From assembly GCA_003135855.1 (NCBI GenBank), contig PNBD01000040.1, forward strand, positions 1 through 63,170: DNA of 63,170 nucleotides. Reading direction: 5' to 3'. The notes beneath the pieces are model-generated. The model made no database searches. It had not been told where the DNA came from and saw only the letters and a list, made by a program, of their open reading frames with translations. Position numbers and translations under genes: made by a program. Shown piece by piece: positions 49,151 to 57,840 of the stretch. Each line of letters starts with the position of its first letter. Position 1 is the stretch's first letter. The stretch comes from Deltaproteobacteria bacterium. GTDB taxonomy: Bacteria > Desulfobacterota > Binatia > Binatales > Binataceae.

Positions 49151-51196
49151 CTAGGGCTTATGCGGTAGCCCGATCTGTGGCGTTTTCAACGGCGCCGCAA
49201 TGCCCACGAACTCTGTCACGCTGTTATTGCCGAAATTAGTGACCCAGAGATTCCCGGCACTGTCGATCGCGACGCTGAACGGCGTCAGAATGCCGGCGCC
49301 AGTGAATCCTGTCGTCGGCGATAGTGGGGCGCCGCCTCCAGGACCGCCCGCGCCTTTGAGTTCGCTGATGCTTGCGCCGTGATAATTCGCGATCCAGGCG
49401 TTGCCCGCCCCATCGATTGCGATTCCGCCCGGCGAAGTGAGCCCACCGCCGGTGTAACCGCCGTCGGGTGAGACCGCGAGGCCCTGGGAATTCAGTTGCG
49501 TCACGCTGTCACCGTAAAAGTTGGCGATCCAGGCGTTCCCAAACTGGTCGAGCGCGATCGCCTGCGGAAGATCGAGCCCGCCACCCATAAAACCCGATTG
49601 CGGTGATATCGGGCTGCCGGTTTGAGCAAATGCGCTCACAGTATTTGCACTTTGGTTGGCGACCCACGCCCCGCCGAAGGCATCGATCGCGATTCCCACC
49701 GGGAAATCGAGCCCGCCTCCGCTAAATCCCAGGGCAGGCGAAGCGGGCGCGCCGGTCGAAGTCAGCTTGGTAACGCTCGAATCGCCGAAGTTCGCAGTCC
49801 AGACGTTGCCATTTGCGTCAATCGCGATCGAGACGGGGAAGTCCATCCCACCGCCAGAGTAGCCGCTCGCGCCTGATTGGACGACGCCGTTCGGCGCGAG
49901 CTTGGTGACACTGCCGAGCCCGCGATTGACGCTGCTCGAGCTCTCCTGGTTGGTGGCCCAGACGTTGCCCGTGCCATCCACTGCAATCCCGAACGATTCT
50001 CTGAGTCCGCCACCGATGAAACCAGTCGCGGGCGAGAGAGGCGATCCCGCCGGTCCGAGCTTGGTCACGCGATTATTGTAATTGGCTATCCAGATGTTGC
50101 CGGCAGCATCGACCGCAAGATCGGTTGGTTCGCTTAGGCCCCCGCCAGTGTAGTTGAGCGTCAAGGTCCAGTCGGTGGGCGCCGTGGTAAGTGCCGGCAG
50201 GTAAGACGAGCTACCCAAGGCGGAGTTGAACAGAGCAGGCACGTTGCTGGCCGGATAGTGAGCGATATCGAGCGCTGCGGCAATCGTGTCGAGCGGCGCG
50301 CTGCCGCCTGGAGGAGTTGTGTTCGCAAAGAGCTTTGAGCATTGCGAGGAAGAAGCTCCTAAGGAGCTGACGCACGCGGCCAGAAGATCGGCGATCGTGT
50401 TCAACTTCGATGGGCTGTTGGCCGAGTTGGCAATCAGGGTCGAAACGTTACCGGTGGTTACATCGACCAGGTTGGCCACGGTCGCTGCGGCATTTTGCAG
50501 GCCTGGTGCTGGTCCAAAAATCTGTGTTGAGGCGGTGCTGAACTGCGCCATCGCCCACAGCGAAGCGGCGCTGGTGCGTTCATTGATGACTGCGGAATGG
50601 GCGAACTTCGTTCCTAACCCGAGCACGGCCATGAGCTTGATCGCCGCGTTTGTGCCGGGGCCGGCGTTTCCGCCGGATGCAACTGCATACAGGATCGCTG
50701 AGCCACCTGGGTTCACGATGCCGAATGAAGTGTGGCCGCCAGAATTGGTTGTCCCATTGCCGATCGCACTCGCTCCACCGGAATTACCAGCATAGACCGT
50801 AACCAGCGAACCCATGATGGGTTGCGATCCAGTCATCACCGTGCCGGTGAAAGTGGCATTGTAAACAATAGTGGGAGTTGCGCTTGGAGTCCGAGTAGGC
50901 GTTGCAGTTCGAGTAGGCGTTGCACTTCTAGTCGGAGTAGCAGTCAGCGTCGGCGATGCGGTGGGACTCGATGTTGAGTTCAAGACGCCGCTACCATGAC
51001 CCGTGGGCGTGAAGGTCGCGGTGGGTGTCGATGTGGGGGTCGGCGTCGCGGTTCCAGTCGCGGTCGCAGTGGGAGTAGTAGCCGCAAGGATGCTGCCTGC
51101 CGCGCCGAGGTTCCAGGCGAGTAGCGCGACCAGCGCAACACAGACCTTCGATAGCCCTCCAAACCGATGCTCAGGCGCCACTATTCGAACTAGCAT
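49151..51196 (-). CDS. secreted NHL-repeat beta-propeller protein with an N-terminal T/P-rich linker and a conserved about 240-aa module
   Basis: 681 aa with a signal peptide. It has six NHL-like blades ('LAVDAAGNIWIANY', 'GIAVDGTGNVWATN', 'SIAIDANGNVWTANF', 'GIAIDAFGGAWVAN', 'AIALDQFGNAWIANF', 'GIAIDGAGNAWIANY', 'SVAIDSAGNLWVTNF'). Confidence 0.8.
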   Translation of the reverse strand: MLVRIVAPEHRFGGLSKVCVALVALLAWNLGAAGSILAATTPTATATGTATPTPTSTPTATFTPTGHGSGVLNSTSSPTASPTLTATPTRSATPTRTATPTRTPSATPTIVYNATFTGTVMTGSQPIMGSLVTVYAGNSGGASAIGNGTTNSGGHTSFGIVNPGGSAILYAVASGGNAGPGTNAAIKLMAVLGLGTKFAHSAVINERTSAASLWAMAQFSTASTQIFGPAPGLQNAAATVANLVDVTTGNVSTLIANSANSPSKLNTIADLLAACVSSLGASSSQCSKLFANTTPPGGSAPLDTIAAALDIAHYPASNVPALFNSALGSSSYLPALTTAPTDWTLTLNYTGGGLSEPTDLAVDAAGNIWIANYNNRVTKLGPAGSPLSPATGFIGGGLRESFGIAVDGTGNVWATNQESSSSVNRGLGSVTKLAPNGVVQSGASGYSGGGMDFPVSIAIDANGNVWTANFGDSSVTKLTSTGAPASPALGFSGGGLDFPVGIAIDAFGGAWVANQSANTVSAFAQTGSPISPQSGFMGGGLDLPQAIALDQFGNAWIANFYGDSVTQLNSQGLAVSPDGGYTGGGLTSPGGIAIDGAGNAWIANYHGASISELKGAGGPGGGAPLSPTTGFTGAGILTPFSVAIDSAGNLWVTNFGNNSVTEFVGIAAPLKTPQIGLPHKP
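50870..51082 (-). repeat. coding T/P-rich low-complexity tract (aa 39-109 of the NHL protein)
   Basis: The tract reads [28 protein letters not shown]...[25 protein letters not shown]. It uses the same TPTRT motif as the tail of the convergent 890-aa protein. Confidence 0.85.
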
Positions 51197-51269: not shown

Positions 51270-53270
51270 TCAGGGACCGATCGCCATCGAATAAGCACCG
51301 AAGATGGCGAAGAAGAACGGTGAGGAAACGTCTATTGCCGTTAGCGCGCCCAAAACGAAAACATGGTCGATCGTGAAGACGGATACGTTGCTATCGGTGT
51401 TGTTTGCGACGTAGACGAAGGAGCCCGTGGGATCCGCAGTTACCGAGGTCGGACCCGTGCCAGCAGTAAACGGCGAGCCGCTAACTTCCGTGAGAGCCTC
51501 GCTGCCTGGGTCGATCATGTAAGCCGAGACGTCGCTGTTCCCTTTGTTCGCGACGTAAGCAAACTCTCCGCTTGGATCGACCGTCACGGAGTTCGGAGCG
51601 AGGTCCGTTGGCACGGGGACACCTATCGTCGCTAACGCCCCGGTCGTAGAGTCGATGGTATAGGCCGAGACGGTGTTGTCGCCATTGTTCGCAACGTAGG
51701 CGAATTGGCCGGTCGGATCCACCGCAACTGAGACAGGGGCCGAGCCCGTGGCAAAGGGCGAACCGGTGACGGCGCTGAGCGCCCCGGTCGCAGCGTTGAT
51801 GGCATAGGCCGAGATATTGTTGTCGTTATTGTTCGTGACATAGGCAAACTTGCCGATCGGATCCACCGTAACCGAGCCAGCGCCGGAGCCTGTGGGAAAG
51901 GGCGAGCCACTTGCCGGAGTCAGGGCCCCGCTCGATGAATCGATCGTATAGCCCGAGACGCTATCATCGAGAAAGTTTGCGACGTAGACGAACTTGCCGG
52001 TCGGATCCACTGTTACAAAGTCCGGAGAACTGCCTGTGGAGAACGGCGAACCACTTACCGGACTCAGCGCTCCAGTCGCGGGATCGATCGCATATGCCAA
52101 TACAACGTTCAACGACTGGTCGGCGACATAGGCGAACTTGCTGGTCGGATCCACTGCAATTGAGCTGGGCGTTGAGCCTGCTCCTGTGCCGAACGGCGAG
52201 CCATTTGCAGGACTCATCGCTCCAGTAGGAGGATCGATCATGTAGGCTGAGACGCTGCTAGCGCCGGAATTTGCGACGTAGGCGAACTTGCCGGTTGGAT
52301 CCACCGCGACGGAACCAGGATTGGTGCCCGCACTGAAAGGCGACGTCACACTTATCTCGCCCAGCACTCCGCCTCCCCTGATATTGTAAGCCGAGATGTC
52401 GCCAGTGCCGAAGTTCGCGGCGTACGCGAACATACCGCTCGGATCCACCGCCACCGCAGCGGGTGCGGAGTCGGCGAAAAACGGTGAACCGCTTACCGCG
52501 GTCAGCGCACCGCTCAATGAGTCGATGGCGTAGGCCGATACGTCGTCGCTGCCGAAGTTCGCGACGTAAGCGAACTGGCCGGTCGGATCAACCGCGATCG
52601 ATTGGGGGGCACTGTCTGTGGGAACCATCGGGGTCAAAAAGAGTGTCAGCGCCCCGGTCGAAGAGTCGATCGTGTAGGCCGAGATGTCGTCGCTGCCGAA
52701 GTTCGCGACATATGCGAACCGCCCGCTGGGATCGACTGTCACCGCATTGGGTCCTAGGTCGGCGAGAACCGGCGAACCGCTTACCGGGGTCAGCGCACCG
52801 CTCACTGAGTCGATGGTGTACTCCGAGACGCTGCCAACGTCTGCGCCAATGCCGGTCCCGATGTTCGCGACGTAAGCGAACTTGCCGGTCGGATCAACCG
52901 TGACCGCGATGGGAACGCTGCCCGCGCCAACGGGCGAGCCGACTACCTGGGTCAAAGACCCGGTCGTGGAATTTATCGTGTAAGCCGAAACGTCGTTGCT
53001 GCCCGCGTTCGCGACATAGGCAAACTTGCCAGTGGGATCGACCGCTACCGCGGCGGAACCGGCGTCCGTAACATACGGAGAGTCGGCTATTTGAGTCAGC
53101 GTACCGGTCGCGGGGTCGATGGTGTAGCCGGCGACGTGAGTGTTCGCGTCTACGATGTAAGCAAACTTGCCGGTTGGATCAATCGCGATTGATTCGGCAG
53201 AGCCGGCGACCGTAATCGGTGAGCCGCTTATCTCAAACAGCGCACCGATGAACTGGTCAACTACATAGGC
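51270..53270 (-). repeat. array of about 13 tandem coding repeats of about 48-50 aa (propeller blades)
   Basis: The recurrent motif VDPTGKFAYVAN was counted 13 times in the translation. Confidence 0.8.
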
Positions 53271-54272
53271 CGACGCCTCACTGGAAGTACTACAGCCGCA
53301 TTGCGAGGTTGTCGTGTAGGCGTACACCGGACCACCTATCGTCCAGTTCGACGGTGACGAGAGAAGGGGTGGACTATAGATCACCTGCGGCGGCGCGAGG
53401 TTGAAGAGCGTCGCTCCCTTCTGGTTCACCACCGGACTGCTCGCAATCTCAAACGCGGCCAGCAGCGTGTCTCCGGCCGGACCGGTGTTGGCAAACAACT
53501 GCGCGCAGGGTGTCGAAGTCGGGCCGCTCGAGTTAACACACGCGGCCAGGATGTTGCCCAAGGTGTTGAGCGTTTCCAGCGTGATATGGATCGGCGAGCC
53601 AGGCGGTGGGGCCTTGGTGGTATGGATCGGCGAGCCAGCGGGTTGCCCGACCATGAATGCCGAGCCCTGCCCACTAACGACGTTCACCAGGTTGTTGACA
53701 GTCGCCGCATGGCGGACCAGTCCCACGGCGGCGCGAATGTCCAGGCACGTGCCGGTCTGATTGTTCCCAGTTATCGCGGTGCAGTTCACAAAGTCCATGA
53801 AATGCTGCATCGCGGCGGCCGAGGCAGCCGTGGTCAATTCGTCGATGTTGACAGATGCAGGGAAGTTGCAGCCTGCGCCCTCGCAGAACGGACCCGCCAC
53901 CGTCAGCAGCAGGATTGCGCTGTTGACGCCTCCGCCAGCATCACCACCCTTGGCCGTGAAGTAGATAATCCCACCGGCGGTCGGCGTGATATCGGGAATA
54001 ATGTTGAAGTTACCGTTCGAGTCAGTCGGCCCTGAACCGAGTTGAGTTGCATGGTCGCCGCCGGCTTCGTAAACGACCACCGTCGAACCTGCGATCGGCT
54101 GCCGCCCGCCCATCGCTTGCCCTGCGAGCCTTATGCGATGCTGCGCCCGGCCTGCGGCGGCACTACCCGCACTTCCACCCCCGCCAGTGCATCCTGCGGC
54201 GAGCATCAACGTCAGCAGCCAAATGGGAGCTTTGTGTCCGCCGATGAAGGAACCCTTTGGAAACGCAGCCAT
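51270..54272 (-). CDS. 1000-aa probable lipoprotein with about 13 tandem lactonase-type (7-bladed-propeller family) repeats
   Basis: It has the lipobox-like 'LMLAAGC'. Its N-terminal module is homologous to that of the 681-aa protein. Then come 13 copies of '[VI][AT]VDP[TS]G.FAYVAN....[VI]SAY.ID..[TS]GAL'. Confidence 0.85.
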   Translation of the reverse strand: MAAFPKGSFIGGHKAPIWLLTLMLAAGCTGGGGSAGSAAAGRAQHRIRLAGQAMGGRQPIAGSTVVVYEAGGDHATQLGSGPTDSNGNFNIIPDITPTAGGIIYFTAKGGDAGGGVNSAILLLTVAGPFCEGAGCNFPASVNIDELTTAASAAAMQHFMDFVNCTAITGNNQTGTCLDIRAAVGLVRHAATVNNLVNVVSGQGSAFMVGQPAGSPIHTTKAPPPGSPIHITLETLNTLGNILAACVNSSGPTSTPCAQLFANTGPAGDTLLAAFEIASSPVVNQKGATLFNLAPPQVIYSPPLLSSPSNWTIGGPVYAYTTTSQCGCSTSSEASAYVVDQFIGALFEISGSPITVAGSAESIAIDPTGKFAYIVDANTHVAGYTIDPATGTLTQIADSPYVTDAGSAAVAVDPTGKFAYVANAGSNDVSAYTINSTTGSLTQVVGSPVGAGSVPIAVTVDPTGKFAYVANIGTGIGADVGSVSEYTIDSVSGALTPVSGSPVLADLGPNAVTVDPSGRFAYVANFGSDDISAYTIDSSTGALTLFLTPMVPTDSAPQSIAVDPTGQFAYVANFGSDDVSAYAIDSLSGALTAVSGSPFFADSAPAAVAVDPSGMFAYAANFGTGDISAYNIRGGGVLGEISVTSPFSAGTNPGSVAVDPTGKFAYVANSGASSVSAYMIDPPTGAMSPANGSPFGTGAGSTPSSIAVDPTSKFAYVADQSLNVVLAYAIDPATGALSPVSGSPFSTGSSPDFVTVDPTGKFVYVANFLDDSVSGYTIDSSSGALTPASGSPFPTGSGAGSVTVDPIGKFAYVTNNNDNNISAYAINAATGALSAVTGSPFATGSAPVSVAVDPTGQFAYVANNGDNTVSAYTIDSTTGALATIGVPVPTDLAPNSVTVDPSGEFAYVANKGNSDVSAYMIDPGSEALTEVSGSPFTAGTGPTSVTADPTGSFVYVANNTDSNVSVFTIDHVFVLGALTAIDVSSPFFFAIFGAYSMAIGP

Positions 54273-54285
54273 CTATACGAGCCTC

Positions 54286-54939
54286 CTACTCTGGAGCGGA
54301 CAGGTGCCGCACGGTGGTCAGATCGAGATCGGCCGCAAAGCGCTCGAATTCCGCGAGCAATCGCTGCTCGGCCAGCCTCCATCCATCGGTCGAAACCGCA
54401 CGTTCGATAACGACAGACACGGGCGTCGATGGATCGCGTCGCGGGCTAAGAAGCGTGTCGAGGTTCAGCTTTGGTAAGCGCCAACCCCATACTACAAGGG
54501 GTGTTTCGGTACATTCCCGGCTGAAGCACTCGGTCGCTGCGACGAGCCGGAGGTGATCGTTGTCGCGGAAAAACGAGATATCAAAGGTCGCGCCGGAGTC
54601 TCTCGTTCTAACTGCGCGCACCTGTTGCGCCACGAAGCTGGTGCCCTGAGCGAGGTAGCAGCCCGCGCCGTTATGCTCCATGCGAGAATGCAATTGAAAG
54701 TCGAGCTGCACATCGCTGGCACCGTTAGCTGCGGAATAGATCGCGCCCTGTTCAACCAGCGAGTTGCCGAGCTCGTTTCGCCAGCGCCGTTCAGTGATGC
54801 GATACGGACCGATCGACGACGGGAGCAAACGCGTCGAGCCGTCGAGTGAGTCAACCGGTGGCCGGAGACGCAAATGCCGGCTCTGTGACGCACCGAAGAA
54901 GGCGATCACGATCGCAAGCGCCAGAAGCCTGCGTTTCAT
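54286..54939 (-). CDS. EpsI-family (exosortase-associated) protein
   Basis: The start at ATG 54939 forms an ATGA overlap with the exosortase stop. It has an N-terminal TM 'LLALAIVIAFFG', 'LLPSSIGPYRI' and 'HNGAGCYLAQGTSF' (compare the EpsI HsPe.ClpgaGW motif). The 5' part of the 313-aa track ORF is spurious. Confidence 0.65.
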   Translation of the reverse strand: MKRRLLALAIVIAFFGASQSRHLRLRPPVDSLDGSTRLLPSSIGPYRITERRWRNELGNSLVEQGAIYSAANGASDVQLDFQLHSRMEHNGAGCYLAQGTSFVAQQVRAVRTRDSGATFDISFFRDNDHLRLVAATECFSRECTETPLVVWGWRLPKLNLDTLLSPRRDPSTPVSVVIERAVSTDGWRLAEQRLLAEFERFAADLDLTTVRHLSAPE

Positions 54940-55871
54940 CGGCGAAAGCCGAACCTTGGAATGTAGAATATCGATCCCGCGGCGAGGAAAAACAGCAACG
55001 CACCAATTATGTAATCGGCGGCGAGCGCGTAGTTTTGCAACGGCACAATGCGCAGCGCGAGCCAGTAGAAGAGCACCAGCGCGCAGAGCCTCAGCAGATT
55101 GAACAGATAGGCGGCCGCCACCGCGCTTGTGACGTAAGCGGCGTGCCATAGACGTGGCAGGTGGTACAGATGGCCGACAATCAATGCCAGATAGCCCATC
55201 GCCGCCGCACCGCGAAGGCCGTCGCACCCGGGCGCAATAAACATACCCAGCGCCGGCGAAAACATTAGACGCAACTGGTCGCCGCCCACCGGCACTGTCA
55301 GCATCGCGGCAAACACACGCGCGGTATGCGCGGCCACATATTGCAGGGGTAGATCAACCAGCGACTGGAAGGATCGCGGCACCGGATTGACGAATAGCAG
55401 CAGGGCCAGCGCGAACCATGCCGTGCGCCAGGCTCGCGTACCGCCGAAGAGCAGCACGATCCCGCTCGCGTATGCCCAGAGCTGAAGTCCTAGCGGGAGA
55501 AAGTTGATGCCGATGTGAGCGCTATGACCGTAGAAACTGAAATCGAAGTAGGAGTCGCTGGTTAGTCGGGCCGCAAGCATCGCCGCCACGATTAGGGCGA
55601 GCCCCCACCAGTTGCCACGCTGATCCCAAGCCTCGCCGCGCCACGCACGAAGAGCGAGCCACAAACTGACTGGCGGGAGCATGACACCAATCGAACGCAA
55701 ACCGTCGTTGGTCCATGTCTGCCAGAGCGAGCCCAACTGATACGCGAAGCACCACAAACCCACAGCGCTTAGTAATACGGCCGCGGCGAGGAGCCATCGC
55801 CCGCTAACGTCGCCGATATCGCGATGCGGATCAGCGTATGAAGGGCGAAGCTGGTACTCGGCCTGTTGCAT
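54936..55871 (-). CDS. exosortase-family transpeptidase (subclass not determined)
   Basis: The start is set at ATG 55871 (MQQAEYQL). The protein is polytopic, with a conserved Cys in 'FIAPGCDGLRGAAAMGYLALI' and Arg in 'FNLLRLCALV'. This is the exosortase/archaeosortase core pattern. Confidence 0.75.
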   Translation of the reverse strand: MQQAEYQLRPSYADPHRDIGDVSGRWLLAAAVLLSAVGLWCFAYQLGSLWQTWTNDGLRSIGVMLPPVSLWLALRAWRGEAWDQRGNWWGLALIVAAMLAARLTSDSYFDFSFYGHSAHIGINFLPLGLQLWAYASGIVLLFGGTRAWRTAWFALALLLFVNPVPRSFQSLVDLPLQYVAAHTARVFAAMLTVPVGGDQLRLMFSPALGMFIAPGCDGLRGAAAMGYLALIVGHLYHLPRLWHAAYVTSAVAAAYLFNLLRLCALVLFYWLALRIVPLQNYALAADYIIGALLFFLAAGSIFYIPRFGFRR

Positions 55872-55890: not shown

Positions 55891-56103
55891 CTAAATGTCG
55901 CGCGCGGAATTCTTCTTGCGCGACTTGAAATACACCCGGATGAGCGGCAGCGCCGCCGCGGTTGCACCGACCAGGCCGAGAATCAGAGAAGGATTCTCCG
56001 GTGAAACAACGCATCCGTCGAAAGCGAGGGCGTTTGACGCGATAAAAACTCCAACTACGAGACCAGCGAAGGCTATCGCGAGTGCTGACGCCTTTCCTAG
56101 CAT
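55891..56103 (-). CDS. 70-aa protein made only of a signal peptide and a PEP-CTERM-like sorting signal
   Basis: ATG 56103 is preceded by GGGGG 7 nt upstream. The sequence is MLGKASALAIAFAGLVVGVFIASNALA | FDGCVVS | PENPS | LILGLVGATAAALPLI | RVYFKSRKKNSARDI. The stop lies 19 nt upstream of the exosortase start. Confidence 0.65.
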   Translation of the reverse strand: MLGKASALAIAFAGLVVGVFIASNALAFDGCVVSPENPSLILGLVGATAAALPLIRVYFKSRKKNSARDI

Positions 56104-56343
56104 AAATCGCCCCCAAACGTGTTTAAGCACTTTATTACGTGTAATCGCTAGCAAATCGAGCCTAATTAAGTAGCGAACAATTCATGGCTGCGCAAGCCAT
56201 TTTCGCGATGAAAAATGACCCGGAACGATGATTAGGCATGCTTTTCTTTCTTTTTTGGGCGCATCCCCGGCGCATTCGGACGGTTGATGGTAAGATTAAG
56301 AGATGCCGGATGTTCTTCGAGGAATGGAACGCAAAAGGGGTAA

Positions 56344-56664
56344 ATGTCCATGCTGAAACGAACCGCAATTCGTCGATTGCTGAAGGGCGTCGTGCTGAGC
56401 GTCCTGATGACGGGAACGGCCTCCGCTTTGAGAAGTGAAAAAGATTTGCCGGAAGCCAACGTAACGCCAGTGCAAGCGCGCGAAATCGCGCAGAAAGTAT
56501 ATCCGGGCAAGATCGTCTCGCAGAAACTCGAGGAGGAGTCCGGCGGCAGCGGACTGCGCTACTCTTTTGTCATCGGCAATGAAGAGGCGAAGCACGAGGT
56601 GGGTATCGATGCCAAGACCGGGGCGGTGCTGGAAAATTCCGTCGAGGGGGCGAATCCCGACTGA
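56344..56664 (+). CDS. PepSY domain protein
   Basis: 106 aa with a signal peptide. 'VTPVQAREIAQKVYPGKIVSQKLEEE...YSFVI...EVGIDAKTGAVLE' is a typical PepSY fold pattern. Confidence 0.7.
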   Translation: MSMLKRTAIRRLLKGVVLSVLMTGTASALRSEKDLPEANVTPVQAREIAQKVYPGKIVSQKLEEESGGSGLRYSFVIGNEEAKHEVGIDAKTGAVLENSVEGANPD

Positions 56665-56808: not shown

Positions 56809-57840
56809 ATGGATGTCGCTTTTCCCGCGAGACTGCGGAAATTCAGCTTCGTCGTCATCCTTCTGTTGTTGTTTGGTGGATGCGGTAGCGGAAACGGATC
56901 ATCCCCGGTTCCGCACGCGGCCAAGTTAATTTTCGTCGGCTATTTCTGCTTCGGCGCGCAGCCGTCGAGTGTCCGGATATTCGCCGCCGACGCTAACGGC
57001 AGCGCCGCGCCGCTCGCAATCCTCGGGGGCGATCAAACGGGAATTACCGCGCCTGCCGCCGTCGCCCTGGACAGAATTGATCAGCTCTACGTGGCCAACG
57101 CGGCAAGTTCGAATCCCGCGATTTTGGTGTTCGCGCAAGGCGCCAGCGGCAACGTCGCTCCCATGCGATCGATCAGCGGATCAAACACCGGACTCAACGC
57201 GCCGTTCGGCGTGGTGGTCGATCAGGCAGGCAATATCTTTGTCGCGAATGAGGGCGCGAGCAATGTGCTCAAGTTTGACGCTGCTGCGAGCGGCAATGTG
57301 GCGCCGGTCGCGATCATTGCGGGCGCCAACACGGGATTGGCCGCCCCTCCTTTGGGGCCATTGGAGATCAGCCTGGACATCCGTCAGCGAATTTATGTGA
57401 CCAACGTTCCCAACAACTCGGTTCTGATTTTCGCGCCTGATGCCGACGGCAACGTCGCTCCGATCGCGACGCTGGCTGGCCCCAACACTGGGTTAGACGG
57501 TCCGATCCAGGCGGTCTTCGGTCCGAGCGGCCGTATCTACGTGAGTGACAATACGCACTGCTTTCCGAACTGCACTGGTGCGGAGCCGTTCGCGATCACC
57601 GTCTATAAACGGCACGCGAGTGGAGATGCCGTCCCGGTCAGGACCATTACTGGAAGCAACACGCACCTGTTCCTGCCGGCGGGAATCGCGGTGGACGACA
57701 CGGAGCAGATTTACGCCGCCAATCAAAAAGATAACAGCGTGCAGATTTTCCCTCGCGGCAGCGATGGCAACGTCGCGCCAAGGATTATCGCGGGCTCCAA
57801 TCCGAATGTTTGCGTCGCGCGATCGCTCGCGGTGGACTAA
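56809..57840 (+). CDS. six-bladed beta-propeller lipoprotein (NHL-like)
   Basis: 343 aa with the lipobox-like 'LLFGGC'. It has six repeats containing '[AS].G[ND][VA]AP...I.G.NTGL' followed by 'G.I[FY]V[AST][ND]'. Confidence 0.75.
   Translation: MDVAFPARLRKFSFVVILLLLFGGCGSGNGSSPVPHAAKLIFVGYFCFGAQPSSVRIFAADANGSAAPLAILGGDQTGITAPAAVALDRIDQLYVANAASSNPAILVFAQGASGNVAPMRSISGSNTGLNAPFGVVVDQAGNIFVANEGASNVLKFDAAASGNVAPVAIIAGANTGLAAPPLGPLEISLDIRQRIYVTNVPNNSVLIFAPDADGNVAPIATLAGPNTGLDGPIQAVFGPSGRIYVSDNTHCFPNCTGAEPFAITVYKRHASGDAVPVRTITGSNTHLFLPAGIAVDDTEQIYAANQKDNSVQIFPRGSDGNVAPRIIAGSNPNVCVARSLAVD

Follow-up and report, generated by a model that had tools for sequence, protein, structure and literature searches.

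A 70-codon mini-ORF of the PExPT-CTERM family and its probable role as the dedicated partner of an exosortase J split over two genes

What can an exosortase act on if its apparent substrate consists of little more than a signal peptide and a sorting signal? This question is raised by a short ORF in the 63,170-nucleotide stretch of Deltaproteobacteria DNA analyzed here, which we call the window. A sequence-only reading had described the ORF as a minimal exosortase substrate with about seven residues between the predicted signal-peptidase site and a PEP-like motif. The coordinates, the minus strand and the 70-residue translation given by that reading are all exact. The ORF and its parts are as follows.

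55891-56103, minus strand: mini-ORF, 70 aa plus stop; 42.8 bits against TIGR04200 (cutoff 40); PF27850 on the identical Logan gene.
56023-56103, minus strand: predicted Sec signal peptide, codons 1-27, with n-region MLGK, h-region ASALAIAFAGLVVGVFIA and c-region SNALA carrying the A-x-A site; from the Kyte-Doolittle profile.
55987-56016, minus strand: signature motif G-C-V-V-S-P-E-N-P-S, codons 30-39; G, C, S, P, E and P are invariant in the family alignments.
55939-55986, minus strand: C-terminal TM segment, codons 40-55, 16 hydrophobic residues (LILGLVGATAAALPLI); from the hydropathy profile.
55894-55938, minus strand: basic cytoplasmic tail, codons 56-70, with R56, K60, R62, K63, K64 and R68.

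The architecture, too, is as described. The signal ends in ALA and is followed by FDGCVV, S-P-E-N-P-S, a hydrophobic helix of exactly 16 residues and a tail with six K/R. The n-, h- and c-regions and the small residues at -3 and -1 are all present in the N-terminus, as sequence features only. In a scan of the whole 63-kb window for further PEP-CTERM-like tails none was found, and the mini-ORF has the only one. On the minus strand the start codon is ATG at 56103-56101, the stop codon is TAG at 55893-55891, and a Shine-Dalgarno-like GGGGG run occupies positions -11 to -7 of the ATG. A TTG at 56154 would give a longer version of 87 aa. We prefer the 70-aa start, since all relatives begin just ahead of the hydrophobic segment and two independent gene calls correspond to the 70-aa form.

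The gene had been thought too short for many annotation pipelines, and this is only partly so. Two independent assemblies of the organism, an ENA contig and the Logan assembly of SRR7151668, contain an identical ORF. It is uncalled on the ENA contig (L082, 5529-6000), whereas the Logan contig (L083, 421-633) has it as a called gene with the PF27850 tag. On a JGI contig (L081), a 90% identical homologue is also called as a gene and tagged PF27850. Thus, gene callers still overlook a 70-codon mini-ORF, as its absence among the ENA calls for the same contig illustrates.

To which family does the peptide belong? Its sole match in NCBIfam is TIGR04200 (targ_of_XrtJ, PExPT-CTERM protein), with an E-value of 3.3e-11 over profile positions 5-57 of 57; the score exceeds the curated cutoff by only 2.8 bits. 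The generic PEP-CTERM model TIGR02595 does not match the peptide at E <= 1. PF27850 is newer than the Pfam release that we searched, and this tag comes from existing public gene calls. All four elements listed above are found within 70 aa, where the family measures about 57-80 aa, and an exosortase J gene adjoins. The sequence-only reading had named a 'PExPT-CTERM' class, in which one short partner adjoins the exosortase, and could not verify membership. This is now settled by the scores above the curated cutoffs of both TIGR04200 and the exosortase J model TIGR04199 and by the PF27850 tag on an identical protein. By profile match, the mini-ORF is a member of the catalogued PExPT-CTERM family (TIGR04200 / PF27850), the tiny dedicated partner of exosortase J. 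Its identity is in this sense already known, because the family is curated and abundant and existing models label the same sequence.

How much of the family is seen depends on the search. With the 70-aa peptide alone, a word-index search returned one relative, and only a profile based on syntenic loci brings the family into view. With such a profile of 39 mini-ORFs, at least 2,099 clusters of proteins were recovered; all of them are PF27850 and carry the names 'PExPT-CTERM protein' (NCBI) and 'XrtJ-associated TM-motif-TM protein' (JGI). An exhaustive phmmer search with the window peptide alone gave 43 representatives at 50% identity, nearly all of 52-132 aa. Among these matches is a window-like subfamily in which A-x-A is followed by [FLI]-x-G-C-V-x-S-P-E-N-P-[ST]. 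The motif of this subfamily ends in either Ser or Thr, which bears out the suggestion that P-E-N-P-S fits P-E-x-P-[ST]. The top phmmer match was a public protein of 1608 aa (P0242), which aligned with query residues 9-38 only, in nine stretches, and which is probably no family member but a hydrophobic repeat of low complexity.

Could the ORF instead be a chance reading frame, or a non-coding leader of xrtJ? Its shortness, the missing call on the ENA contig and an HMM score near the cutoff would all fit such a view. We therefore give the evidence from gene order and from substitutions. A scan with the XrtJ profile, using one genome per GTDB species, gave 80 xrtJ loci. Most are from Acidobacteriaceae (Terracidiphilus, Edaphobacter, Tunturiibacter and Granulicella), and the remainder are from Gammaproteobacteria MAGs, Nevskia, one Rhodanobacteraceae MAG and one Kiritimatiellae MAG. 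The proposed search for homologous mini-ORFs upstream of orthologous exosortases, by regex and then by HMM, found one on the same strand in 61 of the 80 loci, in both Acidobacteriaceae and Gammaproteobacteria. It lies 120-380 nt upstream of xrtJ, or about 2.1-2.4 kb upstream with one intervening gene. The substitution pattern is coding-like as well. The window and its 90% relative (L081) differ by 8 synonymous and 7 non-synonymous changes (NG86 dN/dS 0.36), and the non-synonymous ones fall almost all outside the motif and the TM core. Across the family, 205 same-length pairs have a median dN/dS of 0.20 (NG86), and all are below 0.5. In other frames the same DNA gives 1.55-1.9, or stops. The two sequence-based grounds on which the sequence-only reading would have been refuted, missing syntenic ORFs and substitutions unlike those of coding DNA, are both contradicted. 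Since the profile match is highly significant, the homologous clusters number more than 2,000, synteny is conserved in 61 of the 80 loci and dN/dS differs so clearly between frames, and since the Shine-Dalgarno-like run has the correct spacing, the idea of a chance or non-coding stretch is refuted and retains practically no probability. Judged by these comparisons, the mini-ORF is a real gene under purifying selection, far beyond chance.

The pairing of XrtJ with a mini-ORF is not universal within 4 kb, because 12 xrtJ-like loci with full 4-kb flanks gave no mini-ORF in relaxed HMM, regex and two-TM scans. When compared by XrtJ similarity, the loci without a mini-ORF group together in part, and this points to a subclade whose partner is different or remote. 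About 12 full-flank loci (L013, L049, L057, L069, L074, L076, L077, L079 and others) have neither the mini-ORF nor the propeller partner described below. Some loci contain a second copy of the mini-ORF, and both copies then lie close to a propeller gene (L005, 538-766 and 3452-3701; L010, 3399-3657 and 8597-8813). The mini-ORF of L016 is frameshifted.

The alignments define what the family retains. In an alignment of 39 sequences (A2), G30, C31, S34, P35, E36 and P38 (window numbering) are invariant. An alignment of 63 mini-ORFs, 57-77 aa in length, agrees with this and shows conserved G-C, S-P-E and second P, then T (or S). In 59 of the 63 members, 16 residues separate the motif and the first K/R, and the tails hold 4-6 K/R. 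One variant (L055, PLAVSPENST) is without the otherwise invariant Cys. Compared with the TIGR04200/TIGR04199 pair, the window has the same signal peptide, G-C-x-x-S-P-E-x-P-[ST] motif, 16-residue TM segment, basic tail and place directly upstream of xrtJ. It differs in being a divergent, non-acidobacterial branch, whose nearest xrtJ loci are from Gammaproteobacteria MAGs (52-58% identity). It also has V-V for x-[DN] before S-P-E and Ser for Thr after the second Pro, though both variants occur in other members.

Downstream of the mini-ORF on the minus strand are four further genes.

54936-55871, minus strand: xrtJ, exosortase domain, 311 aa, separated from the mini-ORF stop by 19 nt; TIGR04199; PF09721; present among the public gene calls.
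54286-54939, minus strand: 217-aa protein, the detached XrtJ C-terminal half, with an N-terminal TM anchor and a periplasmic domain; ATGA overlap with xrtJ.
51270-54272, minus strand: 1000-aa predicted lipoprotein, with an unannotated conserved N-terminal domain and a lactonase-type beta-propeller; PF10282 on the repeats only.
49151-51196, minus strand: 681-aa secreted protein, with the same N-terminal domain and an NHL beta-propeller; last operon gene.

The order is thus mini-ORF, xrtJ, 217-aa, 1000-aa and 681-aa genes. The 19-nt gap and the ATGA overlap argue for an operon; the 1000-aa gene follows after a 13-nt gap and the 681-aa gene, which ends the operon, after a 73-nt gap. The exosortase beside the mini-ORF passes the exosortase J model TIGR04199 with 264.8 bits against a cutoff of 200, over profile positions 4-270 of 522, and its catalytic Cys and Arg (C216 and R261) do not vary among 25 homologs.

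Unlike the usual exosortase J, the window XrtJ is split over two genes. The extra domain of about 250 aa that characterizes exosortase J (TIGR04199 positions 270-522) is found here on the separate 217-aa gene, whose product matches the C-terminal halves of fused 520-580-aa XrtJ proteins in blastp at 1e-9 to 1e-34. Nevskia and some Gammaproteobacteria MAGs show the same split; examples are L057 and L079 (Nevskia), L005 and L018. In the 217-aa protein, H89-x4-C94 and C138-x4-C143 are conserved. Its AF2 model has a pLDDT of 80.7; no fold in the PDB matches this model at E < 0.03 (best E 0.04), with a weak likeness to DcrB, PsbP and SciW. The domain has no NCBIfam or Pfam match at E <= 1 beyond noise, including EpsI (TIGR02914), and a sequence search of the PDB found no solved exosortase structure.

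How would such a short protein be processed? The interval of about seven residues between the signal-peptidase site and the motif holds for the window and is also the rule for the family. The usual layout is an A-x-A-like site (A-L-A, A-F-A or L-[HR]-A), 2-4 residues and then G-C-x-x-S-P-E, with 10-15 residues in a minority. On these alignments, the near-missing mature domain is a family-wide trait, and the predicted mini-protein is essentially a signal peptide and a sorting signal only. We propose that the peptide would be exported by Sec, as its signal architecture suggests. Signal peptidase I would then cut after A-L-A27; this cleavage is argued for by the conservation of A-x-A at a fixed distance from the Cys. 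The resulting 43-residue stub would be held in the inner membrane by the 16-residue helix, its K/R tail facing the cytoplasm. If the analogy with PEP-CTERM/exosortase and PGF-CTERM/ArtA holds, XrtJ, which is a polytopic enzyme with Cys and Arg, could then recognize G-C-x-x-S-P-E-x-P-[ST] at the periplasmic face and cut there. The fragment set free, or transferred to an acceptor, would have about 9-11 residues and contain the Cys (FDGCVVSPE...). This route follows the published exosortase/archaeosortase model and the concept of 'dedicated one-to-one systems' (PMC1569441; 10.1101/2023.06.07.544157).

The older family name, with its TM-motif-TM, evokes a different picture. Here the N-terminal helix would be permanent, and the uncleaved hairpin would dock its G-C-x-x-S-P-E-x-P-[ST] loop in XrtJ as a cofactor, regulator or pseudo-substrate and not as cargo. 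The N-terminal hydrophobic stretch of the window is indeed long (about 23 residues), a cargo domain is entirely absent, and the loop Cys could find a partner in C94, an odd conserved Cys in the C-terminal domain of XrtJ. However, a search for covariation between the Cys of the mini-protein and C94 gave no signal, and L055, which is without the loop Cys, keeps C94. Furthermore, an A-x-A (or L-x-A-Q) is kept 2-4 residues before the Cys across divergent members, and this is what signal peptidase I requires. The h-regions of the acidobacterial members are only about 15 residues long and carry a helix-breaking Pro. We consider the hairpin unlikely and favor cleavage by signal peptidase I.

The invariant Cys could also be explained if it were lipidated, either by Lgt/LspA or as proposed for MYXO-CTERM, to give a membrane-anchored lipopeptide. 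G-C is invariant, with Gly at -1, and tripartite C-terminal signals that contain an invariant Cys have precedents in MYXO-CTERM and JDVT-CTERM, the latter likewise a dedicated two-gene system. We applied a PS51257-type lipobox rule, [LIVMFWSTAG]2-[LIVMFYSTAGCQ]-[AGS]-C after an uncharged h-region. It fits 4 of the 63 members, whereas the other 59 fail it; the acidobacterial proteins have Q at -3, and the window has D at -2. An LspA site is also incompatible with those members in which 10-15 residues lie between the A-x-A-like site and the Cys, and the Cys-signal systems named rely on CPBP proteases, not on exosortases. Lipidation of the Cys is thus very unlikely. A classical lipoprotein was considered for the window and rejected, since A-F-D-G-C fails the lipobox rule, D being disallowed at -2.

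Returning to processing by Sec, signal peptidase I and XrtJ, we regard it as likely that the mini-ORF is at once a genuine gene, the dedicated one-to-one partner of XrtJ at the head of a five-gene operon, and a peptide processed along the proposed route.

This arrangement differs from the canonical PEP-CTERM/XrtA system (EpsH; TIGR02595/TIGR03109; PMC1569441). XrtA is one-to-many and serves real, Cys-poor cargo, whereas the window system is one-to-one, cargo-free and has an invariant Cys. Since canonical PEP-CTERM cargo is Cys-poor (PMC1569441), the invariant Cys distinguishes PExPT-CTERM. In addition, the window operon has no adjacent EPS genes, no TIGR02595 match, no EpsI match in the C-terminal domain and no sigma-54 motif in the leader. 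With regard to the Cys, MYXO-CTERM with myxosortase and JDVT-CTERM with MrtJ come nearest, as they share the invariant Cys in a tripartite C-terminal signal (10.1101/2023.06.07.544157; PMC11980579). JDVT-CTERM, like PExPT-CTERM, is a dedicated two-gene system of an enzyme and a single target (10.1101/2023.06.07.544157; PMC11980579). Unlike in the window, the enzymes of these two systems are CPBP/Rce1-type glutamic intramembrane proteases and not an exosortase, and their targets have real N-terminal domains. The enzyme of the PGF-CTERM system, archaeosortase ArtA, belongs to a family homologous to that of XrtJ, and it is the only experimentally supported model for such enzymes, with C-terminal cleavage coupled to lipid attachment (10.1101/2023.06.07.544157). 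However, that system is archaeal, has a different motif and handles large S-layer glycoprotein cargo.

On the other side of the mini-ORF are its leader and two divergent genes.

56104-56343, no strand assigned: AT-richer divergent intergenic region, the leader/promoter region between the mini-ORF and the PepSY gene.
56344-56664, plus strand: PepSY-domain protein gene, divergent from the operon.
56809-57840, plus strand: 343-aa NHL-repeat protein, divergent, with weak sub-cutoff similarity to the ScyE/ScyF family.

The leader is AT-richer, as had been noticed, with a GC content of 45.8% against 60.6% for the window. The ATTAC-GT-GTAAT palindrome that had been pointed out is present at 56134-56145, but short inverted repeats are no more frequent than chance. 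When the arms are set at 5 nt, the leader holds 6 inverted repeats and its shuffles hold 2.5 +/- 1.9; this is not significant, because 6.3% of the shuffles reach 6. The palindrome is conserved in L081, as is the whole proximal leader (about 88-90%). A near-palindrome at 56184-56200, ATGGCT-TGCGC-AGCCAT, is stronger and is not conserved in L081. No sigma-70 consensus, no sigma-54 -24/-12 element on the strand of the gene and no Rfam family were found in the leader. L081 shares window DNA only downstream of window position ~56496 (L081 1-452 compared with window ~56496-56664). Upstream of that point, the remainder of the PepSY gene in the window is replaced in L081 by a fragment of a sigma-54-activator (PF00158) gene, which lies on the same strand as the mini-ORF. 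The break near ~56496 is either a rearrangement or a chimeric assembly. Since PEP-CTERM genes are often sigma-54 regulated (PMC1569441), the activator fragment is potentially relevant.

Which other proteins belong to the XrtJ system? The 1000-aa and 681-aa proteins at the end of the operon have an N-terminal domain of about 250 aa in common. This domain has no family in Pfam or NCBIfam, and a sequence search of the PDB gave a low-complexity match only. The 681-aa protein is an ortholog-like copy of the acidobacterial partner, and its C-terminal ending resembles those of the acidobacterial partners. Its N-domain (residues about 95-345) matches xrtJ-adjacent genes of 63 loci in blastp at 1e-27 to 1e-35, and in the tally by locus 62 (L003, L012, L021 and others) have the domain in a gene beside xrtJ. 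Over the 80 loci, both the N-domain and the mini-ORF are present in 58, the mini-ORF only in 3, the N-domain only in 4 and neither in 15 (Fisher p = 4e-10, with loci that are phylogenetically non-independent). Both gene orders, mini-XrtJ-propeller and mini-propeller-XrtJ, occur, and they do so in two phyla. The propeller protein seems to be a third component of the XrtJ system; we found no description of such a partner. It is the only element at the locus that goes beyond the family name. We tentatively put forward, as a rather doubtful possibility, that the locus serves peptide maturation, as a three-component module, and not protein sorting. In such a module the mini-protein would be a precursor with a Cys peptide of about 9-11 residues as its sole product. 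XrtJ would release this peptide, join it to a polysaccharide or a lipid, or cyclize it through its own N-terminus, and the propeller would bind, modify or receive the peptide.

The XrtJ/PExPT-CTERM pair is abundant in soil Acidobacteriaceae, as the number of protein clusters indicates, yet a full-text literature search for experiments on XrtJ, exosortase J or PExPT-CTERM returned no relevant paper. An exosortase with a single, cargo-free client offers a clean and minimal setting in which to find out to what these enzymes attach their substrates, and the propeller partner adds a third component for experiments on the XrtJ system.
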